Assembly (NCBI GenBank): GCA_002869585.1
Contig: PKUO01000042.1
Location: forward strand, 1,261-65,260
Reading direction: 5' to 3'
From: Sedimenticola sp.
GTDB taxonomy: Bacteria > Pseudomonadota > Gammaproteobacteria > Chromatiales > Chromatiaceae
DNA: 64,000 bases
Shown here piece after piece: positions 97-60,206 of this stretch. The notes beneath the pieces were generated by a model. That model was not told where the DNA came from. It worked only from the letters and a program-made list of their open reading frames with translations, and made no database searches. A program made the translations under genes and the position numbers. The stretch's first letter is position 1, and each line of letters starts with the position of its first letter.

Positions 97-2442
97 CTAT
101 TTGGTGAGACTGGCAAACAGTACCGGCAGCTGTTCCGGCAGACGGTCAACGTGATCGATAACGGTGTAGTTATTCTGCCCGAATATGCGTTTGACGTAGT
201 CGTCTGCATTTGGATCCAGTGTCAGACAGTAGGTCAGCACACCGGTCGAATAGAGTTCTTCCACCGCCTTTTTTGTGTCATGACGCAGATGCTGCGGATC
301 GCGTTCATCGATGTCCGCCGGTTCTCCGTCGGTGACCAGAAGAATCAGTTTACGCCGTTCCGGCTGCTTGAGTAGGTGCTGTCCGGCATGGCGCAGCGCG
401 GCCCCCATACGGGTCGAAAAGCTACCCTGCATTCCTGCGAGTCGTGCTTTGGCATCATCATAGAAATGCTGGTTGAAATCCTTGAAGCGAAAATACTGTA
501 CATCATGACGTCCATCTGAAGAGAAGCCATGCAGGGCGAAGGGGTCGCCGATGCCGTCGATTGCAGTTGAGACCAGCGTCGCTGCCTCGCGTGTCAACTG
601 CAGCACAGTCTTGTCTGAACCCTGCATGGATTCATTGGTAGACTCGGACAGGTCCATCAATACCACAACGGCAAGATCACGGCTCTTCAGTATATTGCGC
701 ATGGTGATGCGGGGATTGGGTTGCTCTCCCATGCGGATTGATATCATCGCATCGACTGCGGCGTTGATATCAATTTCGTCTCCATCTTCCAACCCGCGCT
801 GGCGTTGAACACCTTCCGGAGTTAAAAGATCGATGATCTGTTTGATGCGGTGAGTTACAGGGCGGTATTCAACCATGATGTCACGGATGTCTTCCGGATC
901 ACCCTTGGGTTGACGGCGTTCATAAACGGTCACCCAGTCGGGGCGATGTAATTGAATTTGGTAATCCCACTCCTGATAATGAAAGGGGTCCGAGATGGGT
1001 TCTTTACCCCACCAGTCATTGAAGCTTTTCTGATCCTCACTGAGATCATCCTCGTAGGGATACATTTCAGTAGAGCAGACCCATATCTCTTGTGCATCAT
1101 CGCCGGCCAGCTCACAATCCACCTCGTTGGCCATTTCAACGACACTGACGGTTTTGCGCACCTGGCGCTGGCTTGCTGACACATACTAATATTCTGTATT
1201 GAAATCGAACTCCTCGAATTCCCACACGTAACGGTTATCATCACGGTAAGGAATAGCGATTCGTTCCAGGATACGCAGGCTGGGTACTGCTTTGCGATCA
1301 GCAAACAGGTGGAATAGCTCCATACCCATGTGCCAGGAAAACTGGTTGTCATCCTGACGCGCCTGGATTTCATTGTGGAATTTTTTCACGAACGCGGTGA
1401 TTTGCTCATCGTCGATGGTCACGGTTTCGTCCATCAGCATATGAGCGATGTGCAGCAACACCGGCATGGTTTCATGCTCGGCCTTTTCCTGGTTCTCCTC
1501 GTCCATGGTAATCAGCGACATCCAAAGCTTTTTAAGCCCAGGAAATTCCATGCCCGCCTCGTACTCCACGCGCGCATCCTCCAGCATACCGATGAAGAAC
1601 ATCTGTGCAGGACTGAGCTGCTCTGCCGAGATAGGTGCAGTGCTATAACACATATGGGAGGCCATATGGCCTGCTGTGGCGCGATAAAGATCCAGACCAC
1701 TAACGTCTCCAACATTATCCACTGCATCTGGTACGTGCAATATTCGATGTTCGATGTAGGGACGGAAATCGGTGTAGTCGGCACCTGTCGGGCGTACGAA
1801 AAAGTCTCGACCCCAGAGTGCTCGAAGATAAAAGTTCAACTTACGCTGGATGCGTACGAACAGAACCCCGCGACGCTCTTTCTGCAACATCGCTTTTGAA
1901 TCGGCAGACTCCAGGTTGAAATAGGTTACCAGGTTATCAAAATCGCGGCGGTAAGCTTGGGCACCGAAGGTTGCCCAACGTCGCAGGCCACTCAGCGTCA
2001 GTTTCGTCAACAGTTGATCAATGTGATTCAACATTGGGCGCAGTCCACGCGCTGCTGTTGATGCGAACTGGTGAATGAAGGTCAGGTAACCTCGCAGTAA
2101 CTGTGCATCACCTAAGTTTCGAGCCGCCGAGGGTAGACTCTGGAACATCAGCATGATGACTTCACCTGATGTCATTGATGAGAGCTTCATCGCTGCGGTC
2201 AGACAATCTTCGATTATGTCTTCACCGCACTCCTTAACTACCAGTGGCATTTCCTGGAGGTAGGTAACCACCAAGTCGTTACCTCTCCCCAGGTTACACA
2301 GGGCTTTGGCTCCGTTCAGATAGTTTTCCAGCCCGGTGGGTGACATGGTACGCGCCGCTTCATGGAAGGTTCCCTCCAGTACGTCACGTATCGCAGGCAC
2401 ATCGGACAAAAAATCTTCGTAATCTTCGAGCTTTACTGACAT
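97..2442 (-). pseudogene. cbbO: cbbO (VWA-domain adaptor of the CbbQ Rubisco activase) interrupted by one in-frame TAG at 1186-1188
   Basis: Same-frame ORFs 1186..2454 and 97..1182 are separated only by TAG (..FNTEY*YVSASQ..). The C-terminal half has a VWA/MIDAS motif (VVVLMDLSESTN). It lies directly downstream of cbbQ, as in cbbLSQO operons. ATG 2442 is preceded by GAGG. The summed ~780 codons match full-length CbbO. Confidence 0.8.
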
Positions 2443-2589
2443 GTTTGACCTCAATTTTCGCTACCTGATACTGCGTAATAAGCAGATAGCCATATCACCT
2501 GATATCATCCTGAAATGTCGGTCCCACCGCCAATCCTTTGTGGTGTTAGGCACGCATCGTTTCGACAAACTGTCGTCGCTGTAAATGCT

Positions 2590-3405
2590 TTAGCTGAAGA
2601 ATGTCTGTACTGCTGCGTCCAGCGTATCCCGCATATCGGGGTCATCGGTCAATGGTGTCACCATGGTCATACTACAGGCTGCTAACGGATCAATACCTTT
2701 ACTGATTAATTGACCTGCATATACCAATAGACGGGTAGAGATGCCTTCATCGAGACCGTGGCCCTTGAGGTTACGTGCACGATGGGATATCTGCACCAGC
2801 TTGGCTGCAATATCCTTATCGACGCCAGATTCTTTGGCGACAATAGCAGTTTCGATGGATTCTTCTGGGTAATCGAAATCCAGACCACCAAAGCGCTGCT
2901 TGGTTGACTGTTTCAGATCTTTCATCAGTGACTGATAACCTGGGTTATATGAGATAACCAGTTGAAAATCCGGATGGGCTTCGATCAACTCCCCTTTTTT
3001 GTCCAGTGGCAGGGTGCGACGGTGGTCGGTTAGTGGATGAATGACAACGGTGGTATCCTGACGTGCTTCTACAACCTCGTCGAGATAACATATAGCACCG
3101 ATTCGCGCCGCATTTGCCAGTGGTCCGTCCTGCCATTTGGTGCCATCTTTATCCAGCAGGAATCGTCCAACCAGATCGGATGCCGTCATGTCTTCATTAC
3201 AGGCCACGGTAATCAATGGGCGACCCAGCTTGTATGCCATATATTCGACGAAACGGGATTTTCCGCATCCAGTGGGGCCTTTCAGCATCATTGGCATGCG
3301 TGCGTTATAGGCCGCTTCATACAGTGCAACCTCGTTGCCTACCGGCTCATAGTACGGTTCTTCTTTAACGAGGTACTGTTTGGAATCTACTGTAATATCT
3401 GACAT
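2590..3405 (-). CDS. cbbQ: CbbQ, MoxR-type AAA+ Rubisco activase subunit
   Basis: 271 aa with Walker A GPTGCGKS. Close resemblance to the CbbQ/NirQ/NorQ family. Located between cbbS and cbbO. Confidence 0.93.
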
Positions 3406-3433
3406 GACACACCTTTTGTCTTTTCAGTTAAAT

Positions 3434-3748
3434 TTAGTCTTCGTCATCGGTCTCGGCTTCACCACTCCAACCGGCAGCTTTAGCCCGCTCAATGGCTTCA
3501 TCATGGATTTGCCGATGACGTTGATACAATTCTGCAGGCAGGTTACTAACCAAGCAGCCGTACTTGTCCCACTCAGCATTGACTTTTTGCAGTAGTGAAT
3601 CAATCCCGGCCAGGTTCCAGCCTTCACAGGTTTGTGATTCTTCGATAATACCGAACACCCAAGCATCACGGATGATCTTACCAATCGTTGTCATACCACC
3701 ATTTATGTCATTGTGAATGCCAACGTATCGGTCGGGTTTGGTAGCCAT
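3434..3748 (-). CDS. small hypothetical protein (104 aa) embedded between cbbS and cbbQ
   Basis: Clean ATG ORF on the operon strand with an acidic C-terminal tail (GEAETDDED). No family recognised. Confidence 0.6.
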   Translation of the reverse strand: MATKPDRYVGIHNDINGGMTTIGKIIRDAWVFGIIEESQTCEGWNLAGIDSLLQKVNAEWDKYGCLVSNLPAELYQRHRQIHDEAIERAKAAGWSGEAETDDED

Positions 3749-3819
3749 TGATCGCCTTTAACATTTTTAATCCAAAAATACCTTTATTTGATGCATCCCT
3801 GTTTATTCAGACTGCCTCA

Positions 3820-3857
3820 AATAAAAAGCCCCTGCCCCATGAAGGAAGCAGGGGCTT
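3820..3857 (-). terminator. stem-loop plus U-tract after cbbS (probable intra-operon attenuator)
   Basis: On the minus strand, AGCCCCTGC..(12 nt loop)..GCAGGGGCT is followed by TTTTTATTT. Confidence 0.6.
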
Positions 3858-3879
3858 CGATGTCCGATCTAATTAGAGA

Positions 3880-4236
3880 TTAGACAGCTTTACCGCGGTA
3901 GATAACCATGGCTGCACCAGCGCATTGAGCAAAGTTATCCAGACCCAGCAGACGAACATGATTGTTCGGATGGGCTTTATGGCAAGCAGCACATTCGGCC
4001 AGGATAGCGTCTACATCGGTTTCACCGAACATAGGCAGCTTCCACATGTACCAGTAGGAACCGGTCGAATTTTCAGGCTCGGTGTGCTCGACGGACGGAT
4101 TCCAGCCTTTTGAAACAATAAATTCGATCTGTTTACGAATCTGGTCATCGCTCATTGAAGGCAGGTAAGAGAAAGTTTCAAACTTACGACTCGCAGTATC
4201 GCTCAAGCTTGATTGGTAATCTTGCATTCCACTCAT
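3880..4236 (-). CDS. cbbS: Rubisco small subunit, form I
   Basis: 118 aa with small-subunit signature ([12 protein letters not shown]). Immediately downstream of cbbL. Confidence 0.95.
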
Positions 4237-4323
4237 TGTGTTATACCTCTAAATATACATTTTCCAAAAGAATCAAGTTTGGTTTGCCGGTCAGATCAAC
4301 CCGATCTGACCGGTTTCAACACG

Positions 4324-5745
4324 TTACTTATGCTTCACGTCGAGCTTGTCGACGGTATCGAATTCAAACTTGATCTCTTTCCACGTCTCCATCGCAGCCT
4401 TCAGCTCTGGGCTGTTATTGGCAGCTTTGGTCAGAATATCTTTACCTTCTTTCTCAAGTTCACGACCTTCGTTACGTGCTTCTACACAAGCCTCAACCGC
4501 AACACGGTTTGCAGCAGCGCCAGCAGCGTTACCCCATGGGTGACCCAGCGTACCGCCACCGAACTGGAGTACAGAGTCATCACCGAAGATGTTGACCAGT
4601 GCAGGCATGTGCCATACGTGGATACCACCGGAAGCAACCGGCAGTACGCCTGGCATCGCACCCCAATCCTGATCGAAGAAGATACCGCGTGAACGGTCTT
4701 CTTTAACATAGCTGTCACGCATGATATCGATCCAGCCAAGTGTTGCGTCACGGTCGCCTTCCAGCTTACCCACAACAGTACCTGAGTGCAGGTGGTCACC
4801 ACCGGACAGACGCAGGATCTTGGTCAGTACGCGGAAGTGGATACCGTGGTGCGGGTTACGGTCGAGAACCGCGTGCATTGCACGGTGGATGTGCAGCAGC
4901 ATGCCGTTGTTCTGACACCACTGTGCCAGCTGGGTGTTAGCAGACCAGCCACCAGTTATGTAGTCATGCATGATGATCGGTGCGCCGATCTCTTTGGCAT
5001 ACTCGGCACGCCTCATCATTTCATCAGATGTCGGTGCAGTAACGTTCAGATAGTGACCTTTACGCTCACCAGTCTCGGCTTCGGCTTTATGGATTGCTTC
5101 CATAACAAAGTCAAAACGGTGTCTCCAGCGCATGAACGGCTGGGAGTTGACATTCTCGTCATCCTTGGTGAAATCGAGACCGCCACGAAGACCTTCATAA
5201 CAAGCGCGGCCGTAGTTTTTGGCTGAGAGACCCAGCTTTGGCTTGATGGTACAACCCAGCAGAGGACGACCATACTTGTTCAGCATATCGCGCTCTACCT
5301 GGATACCCTGCGGTGGTCCATTACAGGTCATTACGTAGGCGATTGGGAAGCGGATATCTTCCAGACGCAGGGCACGCAGCGCCTTGAATCCGAATACGTT
5401 ACCGACCAGTGAGGTCATGACGTTAACCACGGAACCCTCTTCAAACAGATCGATAGGGTAAGCAACGAAGGCATAGAAACAGGTGTCATCACCCGGTACG
5501 TCTTCAATCGCGTAGGCACGGCCCTTATAGTAATCCAGGTCGGTGAGCAGATCTGTCCAGACCGTTGTCCAGGTACCGGTGGATGATTCGGCAGCAACTG
5601 CCGCCGCGACTTCTTCACGAGGCACACCCGGTTGCGGGGTGACTTTGAAGCACGCCAGAATGTCAGTGTCCTTCGGAGTGTAATCGGGCATCCAATATGT
5701 TTCGCGGTACTCTTTTACGCCTGCATTGTAGCTCTTTACAGCCAT
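4324..5745 (-). CDS. cbbL: Rubisco large subunit, form IA
   Basis: 473 aa. N-terminus [18 protein letters not shown] and active-site region [30 protein letters not shown] upstream. Confidence 0.98.
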
Positions 5746-7315: not shown

Positions 7316-8659
7316 CTATTGTAAAACAGCAATATCCCCCTGGGGTTTACGCCCCAGGGTAACCACTGCGTCTGTGCCGCCACCCTGACGGCGTTGCAGT
7401 TGCACATCCCAACCGTAGGCCATCGCCAACTGCCTGACGATGGCAAGCCCCAGACCACTGCCACCGGTACTCTGATTCCGCGATTGCTCCAAACGGTAGA
7501 AGGGTCTGAAGACATTCTCCAGTTCCTCTTCCGGGATACCGGGACCCTGGTCACTCACAGAAATCACCATCCCTTTTCCCGAACAGCCACAGTTCACCGC
7601 AATCGGCGAGCCTTGCCCATAGCGCACCGCATTTTCCAGCAGATTGGAGACGATGCGGCTCAGCGCCATGGCATTCACCTCCTCACGGCACCCGGGACAG
7701 GGATGCCAGTCAATCTCGGCGCCACGCTCCCTGAACTGCTCAACCAGATCGTTCAGCAAAGACTCAATCAGCAGGTTCTCATGAGGACTCCCCTCCAGCC
7801 CCCTGCTGATATCCAGAAACATACCTATCAGACGATTGATCCGTTCCAGGTCGCGGCGAATACCGGCCATCAGCACGGGGTCCCCGCCCTCCTGCGGCAG
7901 CATCTCCAGGGCCAGTTGAATCTGCGTAATCGGTGTGCGCAGGTCATGGGAGATCCCCGCCAGCAGCGTGGTACGGTTGGCCAGAAGTTCCCGCACCTGG
8001 CCGGTCATACGATTGAAGCTCCTGGCCAGACCGGCCAACTCCTCGGGACAGGTTTCAGACACCGGTTCAGGCCACTCCCCTGCACCCAGGGTACGCACTG
8101 CCTTCGATAACGATTCCAGCGGTGATGACAGGCGTTTGACCAACACCCCCACCGTCAGCAAAGTGACGCCTATACCCACGGTCAGAACCAGCAGCAGAGC
8201 CGCAGGCGGGTGAACGCCGATACGCGAGCGGGGAAAGCCCACGCGCACCCTCTCCCCTTTCAATGGGATGTCGACCCAAAACCATTGCCCCCGCTGGCTG
8301 GTGTTATGTTCAAGCAGTTTGGCCGGTTCGCCGGTTCTGGTGGCGAGCGCCTTCTCAAGAAAAAAACGATAGGGAAGCCAGCTCTCGCTTACCGCGTATT
8401 GGGTATCATCATCGGTCAGGGTAATGTTATAGCGCTCCACGAAGCGTTGCTCCAACAACGGCCGTTCAGCAACAGCCACCTGCCACATCTCGGCGGACGA
8501 GATCATCAGTGCTGCCAGATCATCTGCGGAGCGTTGACCCAGCGGGATCAGCATCAGAGAGCCAACCACAATCAGGATAAAGAGCTGAAACCCGATAGAG
8601 ACCACGGCAATGGTATTCAGGGTTCTGCCGAACAGCGTACGCGGCTTGAAAATACTCAC
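7316..8659 (-). CDS. sensor histidine kinase (EnvZ-like: 2 TM, HAMP, HisKA, HATPase)
   Basis: H-box ISHDLRTPIT, plus N/G boxes (NLLENAVRY, DQGPGI, GGSGLGLAIV). GTG start 9 nt after the regulator stop. Confidence 0.9.
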   Translation of the reverse strand: MSIFKPRTLFGRTLNTIAVVSIGFQLFILIVVGSLMLIPLGQRSADDLAALMISSAEMWQVAVAERPLLEQRFVERYNITLTDDDTQYAVSESWLPYRFFLEKALATRTGEPAKLLEHNTSQRGQWFWVDIPLKGERVRVGFPRSRIGVHPPAALLLVLTVGIGVTLLTVGVLVKRLSSPLESLSKAVRTLGAGEWPEPVSETCPEELAGLARSFNRMTGQVRELLANRTTLLAGISHDLRTPITQIQLALEMLPQEGGDPVLMAGIRRDLERINRLIGMFLDISRGLEGSPHENLLIESLLNDLVEQFRERGAEIDWHPCPGCREEVNAMALSRIVSNLLENAVRYGQGSPIAVNCGCSGKGMVISVSDQGPGIPEEELENVFRPFYRLEQSRNQSTGGSGLGLAIVRQLAMAYGWDVQLQRRQGGGTDAVVTLGRKPQGDIAVLQ

Positions 8660-8668
8660 GGAGCGCCT

Positions 8669-9376
8669 TCAGGGATCAGGTGAAAAGAGGTAACCCGCAC
8701 CCCAGATGGTGCGCAGATAGACCGGCTCCGATGCATCCACCTCGATCTTGCGTCTCAGGCGGTTTACCCGCACGTCGATACTACGGTCGAAAGGTGAGCG
8801 CTCGTAACCCTTGGTCAGGTCCAGCAGACGGTCACGGCTCAACACGTTATTGGGGTTCTGCACAAAAATGCGCAGCAGTTCAAACTCCCCCAGGGTCAAG
8901 GGAATTTCAGCCTTCTCCCGGGTCAGCTTATGGCTGTAGAGATTGAGTTCGAATGGACCAAAGCGCACCATCTGCTCGGCGCTGCCATCAGCATGCGCCT
9001 TGTTTCGGCTGCGACGCAGCACGGCGCGCACCCGCGCCAGCAGTTCCCGTGGATTGAACGGCTTGGCCAGATAATCATCGGCGCCCACCTCCAGCCCGAC
9101 GATCTTATCAACCTCATCGCCACGCGCGGAGAGGATGATAATCGCCTGGTCACCCTGCTGGCGCAGGCGACGCGCCAGCGTCAGGCCATCATCTCCCGGC
9201 ATCATCAGATCGAGAATAATCAGATCGACACTGTTTTTCTTCAGATAGCGCTCCATCGCCGCGCCATCGGCAACCGCGTCCACGGTATAACCCTGCTCCT
9301 TGAGATAGCGTTTTAACAAGGCCCGCAATTCAGGCTCATCGTCTACCACAAGCAGGTGTTCATGTTGCTCAGTCAT
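8669..9376 (-). CDS. OmpR-family response regulator
   Basis: Receiver domain (LLVVDDEPELRALL, DLIILDLMMPG) plus winged-helix C-terminus (IWGAGYLF). Start moved to ATG 9376 (MTEQHEH). Confidence 0.92.
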   Translation of the reverse strand: MTEQHEHLLVVDDEPELRALLKRYLKEQGYTVDAVADGAAMERYLKKNSVDLIILDLMMPGDDGLTLARRLRQQGDQAIIILSARGDEVDKIVGLEVGADDYLAKPFNPRELLARVRAVLRRSRNKAHADGSAEQMVRFGPFELNLYSHKLTREKAEIPLTLGEFELLRIFVQNPNNVLSRDRLLDLTKGYERSPFDRSIDVRVNRLRRKIEVDASEPVYLRTIWGAGYLFSPDP

Positions 9377-9546
9377 GGTAATCCTGGCAGCGAATTTGTA
9401 ACAACACTGAAACAAGTTGATACAACATGTTACCTCACCGCAATCAAATCCCGATAAGTTTTCGACAATCTCAATACTACAAAAACAAGAACGCAACACA
9501 ATCCGTTTCGTAATTCATAGAAACCAATGCAAAGAGGTCAAACGCC

Positions 9547-10161
9547 ATGCAACCCACAATGAACACCATTAAAACCACCCTGAAGAAAGGTACCGTGCTG
9601 ATTGCAGCCATGGGCCTGTCCACCATCATCAATCTGACACATGCGCAGGATGCCGCGCCAGATATGCAGAAACTGCAGCAGATGATGAACAAGCAGATCA
9701 GCCTCATGAAACCGGAGCTGCAGGAAAAGGTCAAGGCGCTGTCACCACAAACCAAGAAACTGCTGCTTGGTATCTATGGCGCACACAGCCGCCACAGCGA
9801 CAAAGTCACCCTCCGCCAGGTGATGCACGAGGCGCAATCCGACTATCAAAGCATGCTGGTAGGTGTTTTGACGGACAACCAGGAACAGGCCGCTGACAGC
9901 GCCCGCCGCCTGGCCAATCACCGCATCCCCATCGGCGGCCTGCTTCCCTACCTGGATATCAAGTTCATCAATGACCAGGGTCTGAGCGCACTGGCTGGTT
10001 TCAACGATGCCGTCGAAGGTAATGCCCTTCGCCTGGCTGATGCCGCCGATCAGGGCGACATGATCAAGGCCTCCTCTCTGGTAGGCACCATCACCAACGG
10101 TTGTTTCAGTTGCCACGCCATGTTCCGTGGTGTTCCCGGAAAATCACAATTGCTGCGCTAA
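9547..10161 (+). CDS. periplasmic class II cytochrome c (cytochrome c-prime/c556-like)
   Basis: Signal peptide, predicted helical body and a single C-terminal CxxCH (CFSCHAMFRG), as in class II cytochromes. Longer than typical members. Confidence 0.65.
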   Translation: MQPTMNTIKTTLKKGTVLIAAMGLSTIINLTHAQDAAPDMQKLQQMMNKQISLMKPELQEKVKALSPQTKKLLLGIYGAHSRHSDKVTLRQVMHEAQSDYQSMLVGVLTDNQEQAADSARRLANHRIPIGGLLPYLDIKFINDQGLSALAGFNDAVEGNALRLADAADQGDMIKASSLVGTITNGCFSCHAMFRGVPGKSQLLR

Positions 10162-10213
10162 TAAAAAACAAACAGAAACACAGCAAATTAACCTTTAGTT
10201 GGAGGAGATTACC

Positions 10214-11362
10214 ATGCAAAAAACACTCACCCGTGTATCCATCGCGCTTGCGCTAGGCATGATTGGTTCGCAAGCATCCGCCACCAACGGCGACCAGATG
10301 CTGGGCGTTACTGCCATGCAGTGGGGCATGGCCGGCGCCTATACCGCGGCCCCCCAGGATGCCGCCACGGTATTGACCAATCCGGCCGGACTGGCCGATC
10401 TGTCCATGCAGGAGTTCCGCTCCGATTTCGGCTTCGGCTTTCTGAACCCGCCACGCAAGGTCAACGGTCAGGATAGCGACTCAGACCTCTATCTGATCCC
10501 CTCCGGCGCTCTCGCCTACCGCGCCAACGATCGGCTCACACTGGGCATGGGCATGGCCGGTCTCTCCGGCATGGGTGTGGATTTTCCTGACAGCGCCCCT
10601 GGCCTTGCCGGCAATCAGGCGATCGTCACCACCAAACAGTTCTTCAAGATCGCCCCTGGCTTTGGCTACAAGCTGAACGATAAGCTCTCTCTGGGCGCTG
10701 CGCTGAACATCGATTATCAGAGTCTGGCCCTCTACAACCCGATGTTTCAGCTGCCCCAGAACCAGGTCTATGGATTTGGCGCAACCTTTGGCCTGACCTT
10801 CAAACCCAGCGAACGCCTCTCGGTCGGGGCCTCCTACACCACCAAGCAGCAGATGGATGAGTTCAAGTGGAACACCCTGAACGGCACCTATGGTATGACC
10901 ATGGATGGCCCATCGATCCTGAGCCTGGGCGTCGCCATCAAACCAATGCCGGGATTGCTGGTTGAGGCCGATGTCAAACACATCGGCTTCAGTGATGTCC
11001 TCGATAGCATCGATTTCAAAACCCCGGCAGGCACCAGCAAGATGAAGTTCGGCTGGGACGACCAGACGGTATTTGCCATCGGCGTGCAGAAGCAGATCAA
11101 CCCCAAGACAACGGTTCGCATCGGCTATAACTACGGCGAGTCTCCGATCGGACCGGAGGATGTGGATAGCAATATCGGCTCACTGGCCATTACCGAGCAG
11201 CACCTGACTTTGGGCCTGACCCGTCAATTCGGCGATCGCCTGTTCACATCGCTCTCCTATGCCCACGCCTTCCACAACGAGGTCACTTCCAACAGCGGCA
11301 GTGGCAACACGATCGAGCTGGAACAGAACGTGGTCAACCTGCAGATGTCCTACCGTTTCTAA
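10214..11362 (+). CDS. outer-membrane channel, FadL/TodX (OmpP1) family
   Basis: Signal peptide MQKTLTRVSIALALGMIGSQASA, alternating beta-strand pattern and terminal ..QMSYRF. GGAGGA RBS before ATG 10214. Confidence 0.75.
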   Translation: MQKTLTRVSIALALGMIGSQASATNGDQMLGVTAMQWGMAGAYTAAPQDAATVLTNPAGLADLSMQEFRSDFGFGFLNPPRKVNGQDSDSDLYLIPSGALAYRANDRLTLGMGMAGLSGMGVDFPDSAPGLAGNQAIVTTKQFFKIAPGFGYKLNDKLSLGAALNIDYQSLALYNPMFQLPQNQVYGFGATFGLTFKPSERLSVGASYTTKQQMDEFKWNTLNGTYGMTMDGPSILSLGVAIKPMPGLLVEADVKHIGFSDVLDSIDFKTPAGTSKMKFGWDDQTVFAIGVQKQINPKTTVRIGYNYGESPIGPEDVDSNIGSLAITEQHLTLGLTRQFGDRLFTSLSYAHAFHNEVTSNSGSGNTIELEQNVVNLQMSYRF

Positions 11363-20754: not shown

Positions 20755-21540
20755 TCAATCGTACTCTTTGTCTTTCCAGGTTCGGATGGCGGTAAACACC
20801 CCAGCGCCATCAAGGTGTTTTTTTCCGCTGTATTTTTCCGCGGCGGCAATTACCCCGGCCACCCAGGTACGTAGAAAGGGATTGGTTTTCAGCTCCAACT
20901 CCAGCAGCGAAGGGACGGTGGACCGCCCCTGGGCGCGCAGTTGCGCAATCGTCTCGGCGCGCGCCAGCACATCCGGGTTGTCCGGTTCCACCCAGCGGGC
21001 AAAGCCGATATTCGCCTGGGTATACTCGTGGGCGCAATAGACTTTGGTGTCGCCAGGCAGCTGGGCAAAGCGCTGCAGCGAATGGTGCAGTTGCTGGTGG
21101 GTGCCGCTGAACACCCGGCCACATCCTGCGGCAAACAGGGTATCACCACAGAACAGCACACCCTCAGTGTAGTAGGCGATGTGGCCTTCGGTATGTCCGG
21201 GAACCTCCATCACCGTGAATTCGACATCCAGGAATGGCAGCGTGAGCAGATCACCCTCTTTGAGCGGATGGGTGACCACCCTGATCGGCTCGTGGGCAGG
21301 GCCATAGACGGGCAGATCCGGAAACGCCTGTTTCAGCCCCTCCACCCCGCCGGTGTGATCCCCATGCTTATGGGTCAGCAGGATCGCCGCCAGATCGAGA
21401 CCCTGGGCGCGCAATACCTCCAGCACCGGATCTTCATCGCCGGGATCAACCACCGCCACTGCCGCAGCACCCGGTTTGCGCAGCAACCAGATATAATTAT
21501 CCTCAAATGCCGGGACAGGTGTGATCTCGAGCATCAGCAA
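20755..21540 (-). CDS. gloB: hydroxyacylglutathione hydrolase (glyoxalase II)
   Basis: Metallo-beta-lactamase motif THKHGDHTGG and typical GloB N-terminus (PAFEDNYIWLL). Confidence 0.88.
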   Translation of the reverse strand: MLMLEITPVPAFEDNYIWLLRKPGAAAVAVVDPGDEDPVLEVLRAQGLDLAAILLTHKHGDHTGGVEGLKQAFPDLPVYGPAHEPIRVVTHPLKEGDLLTLPFLDVEFTVMEVPGHTEGHIAYYTEGVLFCGDTLFAAGCGRVFSGTHQQLHHSLQRFAQLPGDTKVYCAHEYTQANIGFARWVEPDNPDVLARAETIAQLRAQGRSTVPSLLELELKTNPFLRTWVAGVIAAAEKYSGKKHLDGAGVFTAIRTWKDKEYD

Positions 21541-21550
21541 ACCCCTCGGA

Positions 21551-21976
21551 TTACTTTCCGTAAAGCGTTTCCGGATCGATCAGCGGCTCGCTCACCACTT
21601 CAACCCGGTCGCCCCTTACCGCATTATAGAAGCAAGTGCGCCGTCCGGTATGACAGGCCGGCCCGGTCTGATCGACCAGCAGCAGAATTGTGTCGCCGTC
21701 GCAATCAAAGCGCATGTCCTTGAGCATCTGTACCTGGCCGGAGGATTCACCCTTGCGCCAGAGCTTCTGGCGGGATCTCGACCAGAAGCATACCCGCCCG
21801 GTCCGCAGGGTCTCATCCAGCGATTCACGGTTCATCCAGGCCATCATCAGCACCTCGCCGGTGTCATGCTGCTGGGCAATCGCCGGCACCAGTCCATCCG
21901 CGTTGTAGGGCAGGCCATCCAGCACCTGTTGCAGTGGAAGCCCCTCCCCCATTTTGAGTTTTTCTGTCTGTTTCAT
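21551..21976 (-). CDS. hisI: phosphoribosyl-AMP cyclohydrolase (monofunctional)
   Basis: GLVPAIAQQHDTGEVLMMAWMNRESL, WSRSRQKLWRKGESSG and CDGDTILL motifs. Start chosen at ATG 21976 with GAGGG 7 nt upstream. Confidence 0.85.
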   Translation of the reverse strand: MKQTEKLKMGEGLPLQQVLDGLPYNADGLVPAIAQQHDTGEVLMMAWMNRESLDETLRTGRVCFWSRSRQKLWRKGESSGQVQMLKDMRFDCDGDTILLLVDQTGPACHTGRRTCFYNAVRGDRVEVVSEPLIDPETLYGK

Positions 21977-29078: not shown

Positions 29079-29129
29079 CTAACTCTCCCGGTCATGAAAT
29101 CAAGTAGGATTTGAAAAAATTGCCCAGGC

Positions 29130-33015: not shown

Positions 33016-33912
33016 TCAGGCGGTAATTTCGTGTTTCTGTATACGATAGAGCAGCGTATCGCGACTGATGCCCAGCAGGCGCGCCGCGCGACTGCGATTG
33101 CCGCCGGTCATCTCCAGCGCCTGACGAATCACATCGCTCTCCAGTTCCGTCAGGTTGATGCCGCCTTTGGGCAGCACAAAACCGACACGCTTGGTCTGTT
33201 CGTAACCCCGGCAGATCTCGATGGGCAGATTCTCCGGCTGGACATTCTGGCCTGCCATCAGCACGACCATGCGTTCGCAGAAATTGCGCAGTTCACGCAG
33301 ATTGCCTGGCCATTGATAGCGTTTCAGCAGATTTTTGGCGGTGACCGAATAGACCGGCGCCTTGCGTCCGTGTTTGCGCGCCAACTCGCAGGTGAAGTGC
33401 TTCAGAAACAGCGCGATGTCGTCGGCGCGATCGCGCAACGACGGCACCTACAGCGGCACCACATAGAGACGGTAATAGAGGTCCTGACGGAATTCGCCGG
33501 CCTGGACCATGGCGTGCAGGTCATTACTGGTGGCTGCGATAATTCGCACATCCGCTTGTGAATGCCGGCCCGCCTCCTGCTGCTCCAGGAAAGCCATCAG
33601 CTGTCCCTGGGCCTCCTGCGACAGATCCGCCACCTCGTCCAGATAGAGGGTTCCCCCTTCCAGCCCCTGCCCGCCGACAGAAAGCCACTGCTGCAACTGA
33701 TGCTCGGCGCCCGCCGAGCAGGCCAGCATTGAGAACTGCTTTTCGCGCCGGTAACTGATGCGGTGAATCTCCCCCGCCAGGGCAGTCTTGCCGGTCCCTT
33801 TTTCACCGAGCAACAGGACGGTCGTATCGGTGACAGCAACCATTCTGACGGCATTGATCACCCGCATGAATTCTGCAGACTTGCCTATCAACTGTTGAGT
33901 ATTTTCATTCAT
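33016..33912 (-). pseudogene. sigma54-activator-type AAA+ / Fis-HTH regulator lacking receiver domain, interrupted by in-frame TAG at 33448-33450
   Basis: Same-frame ORFs abut at the TAG (YYRLYVVPL*VPSLRDRADDI). Walker A GEKGTGKT, WPGNLRELRN and a C-terminal HTH (RSRAARLLGISRDTLLYRI). No GAFTGA loop. Confidence 0.8.
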
Positions 33913-33949
33913 AGCGATAACCAGATTTACAAATCCATTCCCGGCTGTA

Positions 33950-34720: not shown

Positions 34721-34835
34721 CCTCTCTTTCGCTGACAGTTTGTCAATAAATTATCGCAAAAGAAGGATCTGCACATTGATCGAACTCAAGTGGATATAAT
34801 GGTCATTCCAACAAGGTCAACCCCACAGGTGAGAT

Positions 34836-35573: not shown

Positions 35574-35672
35574 CCTCTTATAATACAGGGTAGAAATACC
35601 TTGTAGTTATGATTAGAATCGCTCTAAAATTAACACAGTATTTTACTAAAGAATTATTTTGGAGTAACAAAC

Positions 35673-35972
35673 ATGAGTGTTGAATTACCTGCACGCGATG
35701 GTGATGGCTATCTCACCGACATGAATGCCTGGACCCCGGAAATCGCCAGGGCCATGGCCGAGGCCGACGGTTTTGATCTGAACGATGAAAAATGGACCCA
35801 GATCGTTCAGGCCCGTGAGTATTATGAAGAGCACTCCGTTGTACCGCCGATCCGTAAATTCGCCAAATACATCCAGGCCGACCAGAAAGAGATGTTCAAG
35901 CTCTGGCTGACCGGCCCGATGAAACCGATCACCAAATACGGCGGCCTGCCCAAGCCCACCGGCTGCGTCTGA
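35673..35972 (+). CDS. TusE/DsrC-family sulfur-relay protein (single C-terminal Cys)
   Basis: GYL.D...W and a C-terminal GGLPKPTGCV. The second Cys, 10-11 residues upstream in bona fide DsrC, is absent. Confidence 0.85.
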   Translation: MSVELPARDGDGYLTDMNAWTPEIARAMAEADGFDLNDEKWTQIVQAREYYEEHSVVPPIRKFAKYIQADQKEMFKLWLTGPMKPITKYGGLPKPTGCV

Positions 35973-36104: not shown

Positions 36105-37646
36105 ATGAAAGAACAACACGACCTCGAACTGCTGCTCACCTCCCACACCCCGATTATCGTCATCGAGTCGATCGAAGAGATCAGAGCGGTGCAGCTGTTT
36201 GCGCGCCTCGGTCTCAAGCTCTCCAATCCGATCTTTCAGTGGGCCGTCACCGAGGGCCTTAAACGGCTGGAGATCGATTTTGGCGCCCAGGGATTTACCG
36301 CCGACCCGACCGAGGCGCTGAAGCACATCAAGGCGCTCTCCAAGCCCGGCTACTTCCTGCTGCTCGACTTTCACCCCTTCATCAATGACCCGGTGCATGT
36401 GCGACTGATCAAAGAGATCGCCCAGGAGTTCGAGACCATCCCCAGAACGCTGATCTTTCTCAGTTATTCATTCGACATACCCAGGGAAATCCGCCACCTG
36501 ACCGCCCGGTTCAACCTGCACCTGCCGGATAGCGCCGGGGTCAAGATGCTGATTCGTGACGAGGTCAACCGCTGGCAACAGAAGACGCGGAGAAAGGCCA
36601 CGGCCGATGGCGAAGCGCTGGAACATCTGGCCCGCCAGCTGACCGGCGTCACCGCTACGGATGCCAAGCGCCTGATCCGCTAGGCGATCGAGGATGATGG
36701 CGCGATCACACACGAGGATCTGCCCAGCGTGATGAAGGCCAAGTACGAACTGATTGGCCAGGACGGGGTGATCTCCTTCGAATACGATACCGCCAATTTC
36801 GGCGAGGTCGCCGGTCTCAGCCGGCTCAAGGAGTGGCTGAGCCACAGACACAAGGCCTTCACCGGCAAAGGAAGCAGCCTCGACCGCCCCAAGGGCATCC
36901 TGTTGCTAGGCGTGCAGGGCGGCGGCAAGAGCCTGGCGGCCAAGGCCGTGGCCGGTACATTCGGTGTGCCGCTGCTGCGGCTGGATTTCGGCGCCCTCTA
37001 TAACAAGTACTATGGCGAGACCGAGAAAAACCTGCGCCATGCCCTGGAGATCGCCGAGCTGATGGCCCCCTGCGTGGTGTGGATGGACGAGATCGAGAAG
37101 GGTATCGCCCACAGCGGCAACGACGAGGGGCTGTCGCAGCGGGTGCTCGGCACCCTGCTCACCTGGATGCAGGAGAACAGCGCCCATGTGTTCATCGTCG
37201 CCACCTCCAATGACATCGAGCGCCTGCCGCCGGAGTTGATGCGCAAGGGCCGCCTCGACGAGATCTTTTTCGTCGACCTGCCCAACGCCGAGGTGCGTGG
37301 GGAGATATTCGAAATACACCTGCGGCGACGCAATCTGGCGCCCAGCGGCTTTGACCTTGCCGCCCTGAGCGAGGCCAGCGAAGGTTTCACCGGCGCTGAA
37401 ATCGAGCAGGCGGTGGTTTCGTCGCTGTATGCGGCACATGCCCAGAACACCACCCTTGATGATCAACACCTGCTTGAGGAGCTGGCACGCACCCGGCCGC
37501 TGTCGGTAGTGATGGCGGAGAAGGTAAATTACCTGCGTGATTGGGCACGTCATCGCACCGTGGCCTCCGACTTATACGCCCAGGCTACATTATGGTTATT
37601 CCCCTTGTCTTCCCAGGTAATCATCCCCATCTCTATTAGTATCTGA
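36105..37646 (+). pseudogene. Ycf46-like AAA ATPase interrupted by in-frame TAG at 36681-36683
   Basis: ORFs 36105..36683 and 36729..37646 share a frame, with no other stop between them (..AKRLIR*AIEDDGAITHEDLPSVMKAKYELIG..). Walker A GVQGGGKS and Walker B VVWMDEIEK. Summed ~513 codons equal the normal family length. Confidence 0.8.
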
Positions 37647-45024: not shown

Positions 45025-45759
45025 ATGTATCAGTTAATCAGACACCTCTGGGGTTCATTAAAAGAGAGCATACGCGATCTTACACCGATTATCATCGTTA
45101 TCGCCTTTTTTCAGCTGGTCGTCCTGCAGCAGCCGATACCCGATCTGCTCGGCCTGGTGACGGGTACCGTGCTGGTGGTGGTCGGGCTGACCCTGTTTGT
45201 GCATGGATTGAAAATCGGGCTGTTTCCAATCGGTGAATCCATGGCCCATGATTTTGCCCGCAAAGGCAGTGTCTTCTGGCTGCTGACCTTTGCCTTTGCC
45301 CTGGGCTTCGGCACCACGGTGGCAGAGCCCGCGCTGATTGCCATCGCCAAGGAGGCGGCCAATATCGCCGCCACCGGCGGGATGATCGAGCAGAGCGACA
45401 GGGCAAGAAACGACTATGCAGACGGACTGCGCCTCACCGTGGCGCTCTCTGTAGGGGCGGCAATCGTGCTCGGGGTGCTGCGCATCATCAAGGGCTGGCC
45501 GGTGCAGTATCTGATCCTCGGCGGCTATATCGGGGTGGTGATCATGACCATGTTCGCCCCGCCCGAAATCATAGGCATTGCCTATGTCTCCGGCGGCGTG
45601 ACCACCTCGACCATCACCGTACCCCTGGTCACCGCCCTGGGCGTGGGCCTGGCCACCAGTATTCGCGGGCGCAACCCGATGACCGATGGCTTTGGCTTGA
45701 TTGCCTTTGCCTCGCTGACTCCGATGATTTTTGTCATGGGCTATGGAATGCTGTTGTGA
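45025..45759 (+). CDS. DUF1538-family integral membrane protein (paralogue A)
   Basis: Polytopic. Shares [10 protein letters not shown] and [17 protein letters not shown]....[15 protein letters not shown] blocks with the next gene. Confidence 0.75.
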
Positions 45760-46556
45760 TGGGTGGAATTACCAGCTTTCTGCAAACACTGCTTTCCACC
45801 GTTCAGGATGTGCTGCCGATCGCCACCATCCTGTTCGGCTTTCAGTTCATCGTACTGCGCAAAGGCATCAAAAACCCCGGACAGATTCTGCTGGGATTTG
45901 TTCTGGTCCTGTTCGGCCTGGCCTTTTTCCTGCAAGGACTGGAACAGGCGCTCTTCCCGCTGGGAAAACTGATGGCGGAACAGCTCACCGCGCCGGAATT
46001 TCTCGGCATCAGCGAAACGGCAAACACAGCCGGCGAAAACTGGCACCACTACCTCTGGGTCTACCTGTTCGCCTTCACAATCGGCTTTTCCACCACCATT
46101 GCCGAGCCTTCGCTGATCGCAGTGGCGATCAAGGCCAACCAGGTCTCCGGTGGCGCGGTCGGCATCTGGGGGCTGCGCATTGCCGTGGCGATTGGCGTGG
46201 CCTTCGGCATCGCACTGGGCGCCTACCGGATCGTCAGCGGCACCCCTCTGCATTACTACATCATCTCCGGTTACATCGTGGTGATCATTCAGACACTCTA
46301 CTGCCCGAAACAGATCATAGCCCTGGCCTATGACTCGGGAGGCGTCACCACCTCGACAGTCACGGTCCCGCTGGTTGCCGCCCTGGGACTCGGCCTGTCC
46401 AGTAATATTCCCGGTCGAAATCCGCTGCTGGACGGATTTGGCCTGATTGCCTTTGCCAGCCTTTTTCCTATCATGAGCGTCATGGGCTATGCGCAACTCA
46501 GTGAGTGGTTCGCCAAGAGACACTCCCACAAGCAAGCCCACCGGCCTGGAGAATAA
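45756..46556 (+). CDS. DUF1538-family integral membrane protein (paralogue B)
   Basis: Overlaps the previous gene by 4 nt and has the same conserved blocks ([10 protein letters not shown]; [21 protein letters not shown]). Confidence 0.75.
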
Positions 46557-46558
46557 AC

Positions 46559-46909
46559 ATGCACTTCAAACTGATTATTGCACTCATCGAAGATAGTAAG
46601 ACCAATGCAATCGTCGATGCCGCCCGCCAGGCCGGCGCCACGGGCTCCACGGTGATCAACCAGGCACGTGGCGAGGGGGTGAGCAAGAGCAAGACCTTTT
46701 TCGGCCTCAACCTGGAGGTCCAGAGAGATATGATTCTGATGCTGGTCGAAGAGCACCTCAGCCGCTCGATCCTGGAGACCATCGCCCGGGTGGGCGAGTT
46801 CGAGGAGAAACCCGGAACCGGCATTGCCTTTCAAATCGATGTCGAGGACGCCATCGGTGTCACTCACCAGATCCAGGAACTGACCCGCGTTGTCGAGGAG
46901 GAGCTGTGA
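46559..46909 (+). CDS. PII-like signal-transduction protein
   Basis: 116 aa. MHFKLIIALIEDSK...AGATGSTVINQARGEG fits the PII beta-alpha-beta pattern. Starts 3 nt after the DUF1538 B stop. Confidence 0.7.
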   Translation: MHFKLIIALIEDSKTNAIVDAARQAGATGSTVINQARGEGVSKSKTFFGLNLEVQRDMILMLVEEHLSRSILETIARVGEFEEKPGTGIAFQIDVEDAIGVTHQIQELTRVVEEEL

Positions 46910-47867: not shown

Positions 47868-47902
47868 AATCCATTTATTAAAGCAACCAACAGGCAATTC
47901 GC

Positions 47903-56584: not shown

Positions 56585-57217
56585 TTATTCACCACCCATC
56601 AGTCGTTCGGCGGCACCTGCCTCCAGACCGAACTCTTCCTCAATCATGCGATTCCAGGCATCCCGCTTGAAGGTCTTCTGATCCGGCACCTTCCTGTGCA
56701 CCAGATTGTAATGACATTCGATACAGCTCTTATTTTTGGCATCCTCTACATGGATGGCGTTGGTATGTAGACGTGATCCGTGGATGGCCTCCTGCTCGTG
56801 GCAACGTCGGCAGGTGGCTGAATCCTTGCGCAGGAACCACTCTCTGGCAGCAAAGGCCGCTTCCGGCAAATGCAACGCCGTGATTACCGGATCGTCATAA
56901 TCCGGCCCGAATATCTGTTTCCACAGATCCGAGACCCCCATGACGTGATCCAAGGTAGCGGCAAAAATTCCTTCAGAAACATGACAATCTCCGCAACTGG
57001 CCCGCACGCCAGAGACTGAGTTGAAGTGCGCGGACTGGCGGTAATCCTCGGCAGCGAAGCTCATCGAGTGGCAACTGGTGCAAAATGCCTCGGTACCCGT
57101 GTATTGATCGAACTCAATCAAAAACAGGATAAACAGGATCCCGCCGCAGCTGCCGATAATCAAGGCAAAGAGTACATGACGGGTGATATATTGCGATAAC
57201 CAGCTGGCCTTACTCAT
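56585..57217 (-). CDS. NapC/NirT-family membrane-anchored tetrahaem cytochrome c
   Basis: N-terminal TM helix and four CxxCH motifs (CTSCH, CGDCH, CRRCH, CIECH). Overlaps the upstream octahaem gene by 8 nt. Confidence 0.88.
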   Translation of the reverse strand: MSKASWLSQYITRHVLFALIIGSCGGILFILFLIEFDQYTGTEAFCTSCHSMSFAAEDYRQSAHFNSVSGVRASCGDCHVSEGIFAATLDHVMGVSDLWKQIFGPDYDDPVITALHLPEAAFAAREWFLRKDSATCRRCHEQEAIHGSRLHTNAIHVEDAKNKSCIECHYNLVHRKVPDQKTFKRDAWNRMIEEEFGLEAGAAERLMGGE

Positions 57218-58673
57218 CACGCCGCTCCCCGGTGGCGTCCGGGAGAGAACCCAGAACTGCACTCGCCTGATCGGGCTGGCCCAGCCAATTGTGAGCAGGC
57301 TGACTTAGGACATGTTGTTGAATCAGGTCAACAGCCCCAACACCGGCCACTGCCCGCACCTGGGGCAGAAACTCGCCATAGAAACTGCGTGCAACAGCAT
57401 ACATCCCGGCAAATGCACTATGGTCCGGACTGGCCATCGCCGCCCCGTGGCGCGCGGCGGCGCCATGCTCATGCCAAAGATCCCAGTAGATGAACTCGAT
57501 CGGCTCATCAAAGGGTGCCGGGGTCAGCAGCCCCTGCTGATACAGGCTCTGCATGATGGCCTGGGAAGGTGCGCCAAATTTTGTGTTGAACAACTCCACC
57601 AGTTGATCGAACTGGTCCATAAAACCATTGGCAAAGGACTTGCTGTGACACTCGCGGCAGACTGCACTCATCACCTGCCGTCTGCGATCGGGGGTAGCCA
57701 CAAACTTCACCGTGCCGGGATTGCCATCGAGCTTCTGCATTTCGGCGCCACGTTTGGGGGCATCCGCCGATACCGGCCACTCCCGTTTGTCACCGTCCTC
57801 GAACATCACCAGGTGCTGCCGTTCCGAGACTGGTCCGTACAGCCCCCAGGCGCTGCGCATGCCGACATCATGGGTCGCGGCAACCTTCCCTGCCGCCCCC
57901 ATATGACAGGTGACGCAGGTCGGGGCGGCAGAGTAGTCCTTCCCCGCACTCCAGCTATCGCTGTCAAGGTTCATATCACCGATATGCGCCTGATAGGCCA
58001 TACCGTGTTTCGAGCTGTCGAATACGGCCTGATCCGGGGATTTGGGACTGGCATGACAGCGGGCGCAGGCAATTGGTTGTCGCGCCTGCGCCTTGGAAAA
58101 ACGATGCCGGCCATGGCAGGCGGAACAGGACCCCTTTGAGCCGTCGGGATTGATACGGCCAATGCCAGAATTAGGCCAGGTTGCAGGATCCAGCGTGCCA
58201 TCACCCTTTACCTTGACGACAGATCCGTGACACTGATCACAGCCGCTCGTGGTCAGCGCCGGACCCGCCAGGTTATCTCCCAGTACCGACCGGTCTGCAT
58301 TGCCCAGGGCGACAGCTTCGGAGTGTACCGAGCCCTTATGCTCACTGAACTCCCGGTCATGGCAGCGGCCACAGTCCGTGGGTGAGACGATGGTGGCGAT
58401 AATCTGCCCCTCGTGCTCGAAGGCATCGATCTCTTCGGATTTGGCCTGATGGCAGTCCATACAGTTGACACCTGCCTCTGCATGAGCGCTTTGCTGCCAC
58501 TCCGTGACCACCCCCGCCGAGGCCTTTTTGTGGCAGCTGACGCACTCATCACCGCCGGAATGCCCCCAGTTGGAGGGATCTAGTTTGACTTTTTCGGCGA
58601 CAACCGGTGCGCTGAGAAACAGCAGCAGAAAGGCCCACCCCCATAGACAAGTAAAACCCAGCCTGGATTCCAT
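57210..58673 (-). CDS. octahaem cytochrome c, hydroxylamine-oxidoreductase (HAO) family
   Basis: Signal peptide and eight CxxCH motifs (CVSCH, CMDCH, CGRCH, CDQCH, CSACH, CARCH, CVTCH, CRECH). Size is consistent with HAO-like enzymes. GGAGGAG RBS. Confidence 0.85.
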   Translation of the reverse strand: MESRLGFTCLWGWAFLLLFLSAPVVAEKVKLDPSNWGHSGGDECVSCHKKASAGVVTEWQQSAHAEAGVNCMDCHQAKSEEIDAFEHEGQIIATIVSPTDCGRCHDREFSEHKGSVHSEAVALGNADRSVLGDNLAGPALTTSGCDQCHGSVVKVKGDGTLDPATWPNSGIGRINPDGSKGSCSACHGRHRFSKAQARQPIACARCHASPKSPDQAVFDSSKHGMAYQAHIGDMNLDSDSWSAGKDYSAAPTCVTCHMGAAGKVAATHDVGMRSAWGLYGPVSERQHLVMFEDGDKREWPVSADAPKRGAEMQKLDGNPGTVKFVATPDRRRQVMSAVCRECHSKSFANGFMDQFDQLVELFNTKFGAPSQAIMQSLYQQGLLTPAPFDEPIEFIYWDLWHEHGAAARHGAAMASPDHSAFAGMYAVARSFYGEFLPQVRAVAGVGAVDLIQQHVLSQPAHNWLGQPDQASAVLGSLPDATGERRDE

Positions 58674-58796
58674 CGACCCGACTCCTCCTCCAATTATTAT
58701 TTTCTTCGGAGCTAATACCAGATACTACACAGGTAACATCATCTCCAGCTTGTTTACAGCAACGTTTGAACGTATCTTACATTTTTTTAAGATACA

Positions 58797-58810
58797 TTGA
58801 GAATTATCAA
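58797..58810. promoter_or_regulatory. FNR/CRP-family box (TTGAGAATTATCAA)
   Basis: 9/10 match to TTGAT-N4-ATCAA. It lies in the divergent intergenic region between the HAO operon and the pentahaem gene. Confidence 0.45.
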
Positions 58811-58907
58811 TGTATTTTCAGAAAACCCGTGTACTGTTCTAAAACAATAAAACAATTATAAGTCCGGTCTTAGACCGGGCACGCCAAAGCTGATCTAGGA
58901 GGATCAT

Positions 58908-60206
58908 ATGAAAATGAGAGTGGCCCGTTCCTTTTCTCTGCTCGCTGCCGGTATTTTGTGACTAACTGGTATCGTTTTATCGGCATACGCAGCAGACACA
59001 CCCCTGCATCAAACCAGCGCAGACACCTGTCAAACCTGCCATAAGGACATCTACAAGCAGTGGCAAGGCTCAATGCATGCCAGCAGTTCCGCAATAAAAG
59101 ACCCGATCCATGCGACCTTCTATAAAAATGTCGCCGGTGATCCGACCCAGGAAGGTGTAGTGCTCAAGGCCTCGGGCAAGTACCCGGTCTGCCTGCAGTG
59201 TCATGCACCCAATGCGGCACGCGATAAAACCACCAAACTGGACGCCATGCCGGCCTATAGCGAAGGCGTTAATTGTATCGCCTGCCATACCCTGAAAAAA
59301 TTCAATGGACTGACCGGTGCAGATGGAAAAATGCAACTCGGGCTCAAATCCTACGAGATTTCCGACAAGATCCAAGCACCTACCGGTATGAATCGCGGTC
59401 TGTCGAAACTCTCCCAGGGCTCAGACATGTTTGGCGGCAGCGCCACGGATGATGAACAGAAACCCAACCCGCACCTGGGCGAAGCGGTCACAGTGGATGG
59501 TGTGGAGATTCCCTCACTGCCGATGGAAGGCAACCCCAAGCAACTGAAAACCAACGATGCCTGCATGGGTTGCCACGACAAGCGTAACAATCCCCACGGT
59601 GTGGCCCTCTGTCAAACCGGCGACGAGTACTCGCTGAGCAAAACCAATGTTAACTGCCTGTCCTGTCATATGCCGATCAACAACGGGGTTGCCGATCACT
59701 CCATGGGTGGCGGTCATGACCAGAGCATGCTCAAACGCTCCATCGTGTTTGATATGGAAGTCACGCCCAATGCCGGCAAATTGACTGCCAACCTGCTTCT
59801 GAAAAACCAGCAGCCTCACAGCCTGCCCACCGGCGCGCCTTTCCGCAATATCGTAGTTAAGGTCACGGCTTACAACGCAGCTGGCGAGACAATCTGGAGC
59901 AATGCGGCAGATCACCCGGCAAAGAGCGACCCGCAGGCCTACCTGGCCTATGGACTCACAGACAGCGAAGGCAAACCGGCCTCACCTCCGGAAGCGACCG
60001 CCCTGGGTGAAGACACCCGCCTGAAACCCTTCGAGGAGCGCACCCTGAGCTATGAAATCCCTGGCGAGGGCGTGGCACTGGTCCGCGGCGAGGTCTTCTA
60101 CAACCTGCTTTGGGACGGCTTGGTGAAGAAATTCAAGCACCTGCCGGCTGACCTGACCGCCCCGGTTCTGATTGCAGAATCAGAAAAGGATGTAACCGGT
60201 TCATAA
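58908..60206 (+). pseudogene. periplasmic pentahaem cytochrome c with in-frame TGA (58959-58961) inside its signal peptide
   Basis: AGGAGGA RBS and ATG 58908. Translation reads MKMRVARSFSLLAAGIL*LTGIVLSAYA-ADTPLHQTSADTCQTCH.., in frame with track ORF 59073..60206. Five CxxCH motifs in total (CQTCH, CLQCH, CIACH, CMGCH, CLSCH). Confidence 0.75.

Follow-up and report, generated by a model that had tools for sequence, protein, structure and literature searches.

Oxidised guanine (8-oxoguanine, 8-oxoG) mispairs with A, and A:T>C:G changes constitute the MutT-type signature. Failure of the GO repair system, as in bacterial mutY/mutM mutators and in human MUTYH-associated polyposis (COSMIC SBS36), leaves a signature dominated by G:C>T:A changes. 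Oxidation favours guanines in GG or GA steps, and stop codons arise where it converts GAG/GAA to TAG/TAA, as in MUTYH-defective cells (PMC5478212). Guanine oxidation during library preparation also gives rise to C>A/G>T errors, an artefact described by Costello et al. (2013, PMC3616734) and represented by COSMIC SBS45. Two further systems present a similar picture at the level of genes, namely programmed recoding (selenocysteine, pyrrolysine, suppressor tRNAs or read-through), in which TGA or TAG occurs in frame within otherwise intact conserved genes, and the pseudogenes of host-restricted symbionts, in which several conserved genes of a core chromosomal region are interrupted. Here we analysed a 64,000-nucleotide stretch of a Sedimenticola sp. 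metagenome-assembled genome (MAG; GCA_002869585.1, contig PKUO01000042.1, positions 1,261 to 65,260 of the forward strand; hereafter the window), in which four conserved genes, encoding the Rubisco activase partner CbbO, a sigma54-interaction regulator, a Ycf46-like AAA ATPase and a multihaem c-type cytochrome, each carry one in-frame stop codon.

The window shares with the GO-system signature a dominance of G:C>T:A among its private changes, a preference for GG and GA, the efficient production of stops by GAG/GAA>TAG/TAA, and accompanying A:T>C:G changes (PMC5478212). GO-deficient mutators, however, have a repair defect; here the comparison covers the sequence of the window, mutY and mutM lie outside it, and a cellular origin is a candidate. 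As with the library-preparation artefact, C>A/G>T changes attributable to 8-oxoG are present that have escaped selection, and a low-coverage assembly from a sister sample shows a similar burst. That artefact, mostly CCG>CAG, stays under an allele fraction of 20%, whereas the changes seen here are consensus calls and only one in 22 lies at CCG. The likeness to programmed recoding is superficial, since the stops are unconserved, the window holds neither a recoding element nor a tRNA, and the ancestral codons are sense codons. Symbiont decay differs again in that it brings indels and mixed lesions shared by a lineage, as opposed to one class of lesion, without indels, in one record. Our analysis shows that the four stops belong to a set of changes with the spectrum and context of oxidised guanine and with the coding effects of unselected mutation. 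The stops are real in the deposited record but probably do not reflect the organism itself.

In-frame stops and near-identical assemblies

Near-identical metagenome contigs were located by exact-protein look-ups and jointly cover the whole window. They comprise JGI 3300007102 contig Ga0102541_1441049 (assembly A; 65,738 bp; window position = contig position - 1260), ENA ERZ794998 NODE_239 (B; coverage 40), Logan SRR5894287_674 (C), ENA ERZ794997 (D, or L086; SPAdes coverage 3.9-4.6), and shorter contigs from SRR117298xx/SRR11729901 (E) and JGI 3300036762-65 (F). Individual loci in these assemblies are 99.0-99.9% identical to the window, and zero indels separate assembly A from the window across all 64,000 bases.

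A simple gene map places about 67 genes in the window. The four in-frame stops, reported in an earlier note on this DNA, match the window sequence in coordinates and frame, and the gene identities given there were borne out by Pfam searches with the stop masked. On the minus strand, cbbO (97..2442; Pfam VWA), which encodes a VWA-domain Rubisco activase partner, is disrupted by a premature TAG at 1186..1188; the ancestral codon is GAG (Glu419), as in A and B, and the change is a coding-strand G>T. Also on the minus strand, a sigma54-interaction AAA+ regulator with a Fis-type helix-turn-helix domain (33016..33912; Pfam Sigma54_activat, AAA_lid_14 and HTH_8) carries a TAG at 33448..33450 in place of a GAG (Glu155) that is present in A, C, D, E1 and E3; this position varies among distant orthologues. 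The Ycf46-like AAA ATPase on the plus strand (36105..37646; Pfam AAA and AAA_lid_3) is interrupted by a TAG at 36681..36683, which arose by C>A from TCG (Ser193; TCG in A, C, D, E2 and F1). The multihaem c-type cytochrome, likewise on the plus strand (58908..60206; Pfam Cytochrome_C554), is disrupted inside its signal peptide, where a TGA at 58959..58961, 17 codons after the ATG at 58908, replaces GGA (Gly18; G>T; GGA in A, B and C).

Gene calls in the related assemblies give one product per gene, of 781, 298, 489 and 432 amino acids, respectively, and the split genes are therefore lesions rather than chance pairs of open reading frames (ORFs). The ancestral-codon check proposed in the earlier note gave a consistent answer: at each of the four sites, two to five other assemblies with 99.4-99.98% identity to the window carry the ordinary sense codon (GAG, GAG, TCG and GGA), and no other assembly from the same population carries any of the stops. 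Distant orthologues agreed at the two sites examined, with a sense codon in 81 AAA orthologues (among the matches listed) and in nine sigma54 orthologues. A scan of GTDB representatives with the AAA protein placed the locus in Sedimenticolaceae, with at most 78% protein identity among the matches listed; such relatives inform on residues in orthologues but are too distant to give the ancestral codons. A scan of JGI metagenomes with the PNPOx-like protein of the window returned only relatives of 35-39%.

The earlier note also held that the genes contain no frameshifts, which is upheld by the lack of indels against the fully covering JGI contig, and that they contain no second lesions, which is refuted. 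A G>T change (TGA>TTA) at 37572..37574 on the plus strand has removed the natural stop of the AAA ATPase, so that the gene, which in relatives spans 36105-37574, gains 24 codons (489 to 513) and its ORF runs on to 37646; orthologues end at about residue 489. The same gene additionally carries I422S, and cbbO carries D661Y (462, C>A) and K295E (1560). As the note had stated, TAG is an ordinary terminator here and ends many window genes at the expected termini.

The window proteins correspond to the NCBI MAG record PLY15376-PLY15428 (locus tag C0631_). Its private missense protein variants are on record only in this MAG and are absent from the JGI, ENA and Logan assemblies. Exact look-ups of the window gltA, DUF1538 and DnaJ-like proteins initially found no record, because each has a private missense change. 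The NCBI protein collection has no entries for the truncated fragments of cbbO, the sigma54 regulator and the AAA ATPase, and the accessions from gltA (PLY15384) to the DnaJ-like protein (PLY15409) fit exactly the 24 intact genes between them, which suggests that the split genes were treated as pseudogenes by the annotators.

The assemblies also bear on the identity of the strain. The window shares its allele with D against A, B and C at 13 sites, in the intervals 8344-11323 and 27906-30447. There the common alleles are interleaved with D-only alleles, so at least three haplotypes coexist in the population. In total, the window differs from the A/B/C clade by about 30 ordinary changes, most of them synonymous, and the 13 alleles in common with D are among these. 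The possibility that the window is an edited copy of the JGI contig was rejected, given these 13 alleles and the absence from the window of the four alleles private to A. Judged by its alleles, the window is a genuine distinct sister strain. The NCBI MAG contig and the JGI contig both measure 65,738 bp, yet differ at about 60 positions without an indel; they could be products of the same pipeline applied to sister samples, or one could be a re-called consensus. Three of the JGI contig's four private differences from the window and B/C are G>T changes (window 1678, 44951 and 46475), all in the context 5'-GR-3'.

Spectrum, context and coding effects of the private substitutions

A substitution was counted as private if all other available sequences had one and the same base and the window another, and as a shared polymorphism if each allele occurs in at least two assemblies. 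The window holds 39 private substitutions, among them 22 G:C>T:A changes, six A:T>C:G changes and seven transitions. All four stops and the stop-loss fall among the 22 G:C>T:A changes, each stop being the product of a single transversion. The shared polymorphisms (n = 100) are composed of 83 transitions, 13 G/T or C/A differences and four others, and the excess of G:C>T:A among private over shared changes is strong (Fisher p = 4.5e-7). Outgroup strains settle the polarity of 15 of the 22 changes, and function or conservation that of most others (the stops, the stop-loss, G189 and W66).

The G:C>T:A changes also have a distinct sequence context. In 21 of 22 cases the change lies at 5'-GR-3', that is, the mutated C follows a pyrimidine, or the G is the 5' base of GG or GA, against a background of 50% (P = 6e-6). 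The commonest trinucleotides are TCA, TCG and CCA, with TCT and CCT also present and CCG at a single site. There was no significant transcription-strand bias (coding-strand G>T 15 versus 6, p = 0.12) and G>T and C>A were equally frequent on the plus strand (11:11). A gap in the spacing of the 22 changes (18.4-32.4 kb) was not significant by our own estimate. The changes stand apart from one another in the window, with roughly one in every 3 kb, each with perfect flanking sequence, and the density of the G:C>T:A burst is about 3.4e-4 per bp. Both the spectrum and the context of these private changes fit oxidised guanine (8-oxoG).

In terms of coding effect, the 22 G:C>T:A changes consist of four nonsense, one stop-loss, 11 missense, five synonymous and one intergenic change, and the missense class includes radical replacements (G>W, G>C, R>M, and two each of W>L and D>Y). 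Expectations were obtained by enumerating all possible G:C>T:A changes in the coding sequence of the window. Restricted to the observed contexts, these would be 9.4% nonsense, 32% synonymous and 50% missense, which corresponds to 2.1 nonsense changes in 22 (probability of four or more, 0.15); over all contexts the expected nonsense fraction is 5.8% (probability of four or more, 0.036). Four nonsense changes against 2.1 expected (P = 0.15) give no sign of selection on this class. By comparison, the other 17 private changes (12 synonymous, 5 missense) look normally selected, and the ratio of synonymous to non-synonymous changes differs between the two sets (5:16 for G:C>T:A versus 12:5 for the other private changes, p = 0.008). 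Some of these other changes lie in tracts at 30965-30999 and 45587-46858, are mostly synonymous there, and resemble strain polymorphism or recombination. The mix of effects among the 22 G:C>T:A changes is thus that of unselected changes of this type, and the four stops are simply the nonsense changes to be expected from an oxidised-guanine type of burst on which selection has not acted.

Origin of the changes

A second burst was found in the low-coverage assembly D, which has 24 private G:C>T:A changes of its own in 33 kb (16 missense, 2 nonsense, 4 synonymous and 2 intergenic). Its two nonsense changes, both GAG>TAG, lie 12 bp apart in the chemotaxis receptor gene (window 18279 and 18291), which is called there as 740 + 47 amino acids. 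Several of the private G:C>T:A changes in D form tight clusters, for example at 20924-20936 and 29686-29714. The transitions in D, by contrast, comprise 60 synonymous, 11 missense and one nonsense change. No private G:C>T:A change was present in the 40x assembly B or in C, and the 22 alleles of the window were absent from every other assembly and from JGI, ENA and Logan proteins alike. The occurrence of a burst in low-coverage D but not in 40x B indicates that the pattern tracks depth rather than lineage.

Two explanations that treat the stops as biological features of these four genes fared poorly. If the stops were decoded, whether by a suppressor tRNA, by programmed read-through or as selenocysteine or pyrrolysine, full-length proteins would be made, and orthologues do differ from one another at three of the stop positions, which might accept whichever residue was inserted. 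Yet the stops are conserved in no relative, near or distant; the ancestral codons are ordinary ones for Glu, Glu, Ser and Gly; neither a tRNA gene nor, at gathering score, any Rfam family, and hence no Rfam recoding element such as SECIS, occurs in the window; TAG and TGA end many window genes at the expected termini; and the same class of mutation also destroyed the natural stop of the AAA ATPase. We therefore give almost no credence to the read-through or suppression that the earlier note had considered. Ordinary pseudogenisation, in which the four genes would be decaying under relaxed selection, for example in a host-associated lifestyle, is in our assessment very unlikely. Each of the four genes could plausibly be dispensed with in some conditions, and the fact that NCBI lists no proteins for three of them (the fragments of cbbO, the sigma54 regulator and the AAA ATPase) is consistent with pseudogene annotation. 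Against this, genomes that are 99.9% identical keep all four genes intact, no indels occur anywhere in the 64 kb, and the five stop-related lesions belong to one mutation class and one sequence context and are private to one record. The same class of change causes radical missense in many other genes, which points to a mutational or technical input rather than to gene-specific relaxation. For these reasons, and with the other private changes normally selected, the host-associated relaxed selection suggested in the earlier note does not appear to be the driver.

The remaining options in the earlier note, sequence error and very recent mutation, both survive, but are sharpened to one mechanism, namely oxidised-guanine G:C>T:A changes that were never selected. 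The four stops do not signal recoding, nor are they carried by the population. Our preference, held with some reserve, is that the 22 changes were introduced outside the cell, probably as technical errors. Damaged template DNA, or reads miscalled at G/T, would have generated the G:C>T:A changes, low local depth would have allowed the errors to persist in the consensus of one assembly, and the cbbO, sigma54 regulator, AAA ATPase and cytochrome genes of the organism would be intact and normally terminated. Several observations weigh against this. The classical shearing artefact has a low allele fraction (<20%) and is mainly CCG>CAG (PMC3616734), while the changes here sit in the consensus, with one in 22 at CCG; a MAG contig of 65,738 bp, equal in length to the JGI contig, suggests reasonable depth, at which read errors should lose the consensus; the window changes are isolated, unlike the clustered ones in D; and the three private G>T changes of the JGI contig, all in GR context, could point to an in-vivo mutational bias. 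A real clone of the sister strain is accordingly a possibility that we take seriously while placing it second. Such a clone would have acquired recent in-vivo oxidised-guanine mutations through a defect in GO repair (MutY/MutM, perhaps MutT) or through strong oxidative stress, too recently for nonsense and radical missense alleles to be purged, so that the four genes would be truly knocked out. The hypermutator would have dominated its sample, with about 3.4e-4 unselected G:C>T:A changes per bp and nonsense or stop-loss alleles in about 6% of genes. It is supported by changes that lie isolated, with perfect flanks and no indels, in a 65.7-kb consensus contig; by the status of the window as a distinct strain rather than an edited copy of A (about 30 ordinary differences, with 13 D-shared alleles); by trinucleotide contexts that resemble the MUTYH/8-oxoG signature and not CCG>CAG (PMC5478212, PMC3616734); and by the three G>T changes, likewise at GR, that are private to the JGI contig. 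The six accompanying A:T>C:G changes, a MutT-type signature, fit as well, and non-synonymous G>T changes are absent from ileS, obg, murJ, ribF, lspA and the ribosomal protein genes, although this last point is weak and post hoc (P ~0.09, our own estimate). The genes mutY, mutM and mutT are not within the 64-kb window. Extrapolated to a genome of a few Mb, however, the load of such a clone would by our own estimate exceed 1,000 unselected mutations, with a few hundred nonsense alleles among them, one of these in an autotroph's Rubisco activase partner. Moreover, the 22 alleles were seen in no other assembly, the same kind of unselected burst appears in the low-coverage sister assembly and not in the 40x one and so follows depth, and the strand tests show no significant bias (15:6 by transcription, p = 0.12; 11:11 on the plus strand).

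Other private sites, gene neighbourhoods and implications

Outside the stop lesions, the private G:C>T:A changes are spread over many genes. The form I RuBisCO cluster (2590-5745, minus strand) has the order cbbL-cbbS-(104-aa ORF)-cbbQ-cbbO, and no carboxysome genes are visible in the window. Its private G:C>T:A sites include D661Y in cbbO (462) and T98N in cbbQ (3113), at a residue that is Thr in each of the 11 other cluster members spanning it. The ORF of 104 amino acids (3434-3748) is kept in the near-identical contigs and has no Pfam match and no family assignment. Further missense changes were seen in a hypothetical protein of 124 amino acids (D50Y, 7071), a histidine kinase (G204C, 8050), an outer-membrane Toluene_X protein (E156D, 10681), citrate synthase (gltA; R406M, 11794), a RimK-like protein (M452I, 13168), a chemotaxis receptor (MCP; Q790H, 18428), a DnaJ/CbpA-like protein (G189W, 38234) and an FKBP-type isomerase (W66L, 42086), in which the residue is aromatic in all nine homologues found. 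The idea that gltA R406 is the catalytic arginine was rejected, as the residue aligns with a Lys in the citrate synthase of M. tuberculosis, just upstream of the RPRQ motif. Synonymous changes lie at 9861 (Val), 13840 (Ala), 32351 (Val), 34553 (Leu) and 50977 (Leu, in ileS), and the single intergenic change is at 47889.

The sigma54 regulator starts straight at its AAA+ module, without an N-terminal sensory domain. Its neighbours within 33016-35972 encode a DsbD_2 membrane protein, a PNPOx/DUF2470 protein and a DsrC-like protein, and this region is a candidate small unit for sulfur or redox regulation. The interrupted cytochrome belongs to a c-type cytochrome trio at 56585-60206, made up of a NapC/NirT-like tetrahaem protein (210 amino acids), a multihaem protein of 487 amino acids and the divergently transcribed multihaem protein of 432 amino acids. 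Private G:C>T:A changes occur in two of these three clustered genes, namely the premature TGA and W89L in the NapC-like tetrahaem cytochrome (56952), at which five of five other cluster members have Trp. One further ORF, of 260 amino acids (20941-21723, plus strand), has no Pfam match and a low coding score, runs antisense to gloB and hisI as called in relatives, and is almost certainly spurious.

These results carry a caution for the reading of MAGs, in that clustered single in-frame stops in MAG genes can mimic recoding or symbiont-style decay. A quick diagnosis is available through comparison with near-identical public assemblies, with the private substitutions sorted by type, context and coding effect. 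Given a technical origin, the record would be wrong to treat cbbO, the sigma54 regulator, the AAA ATPase and probably also the cytochrome gene as pseudogenes, and some 16 amino-acid differences seen in the window would be artefacts. If real, the phenomenon is a known one, the 8-oxoG hypermutator spectrum, and this Sedimenticola strain would represent a rare environmental oxidative-damage hypermutator, of moderate interest for the evolution of mutation rates.

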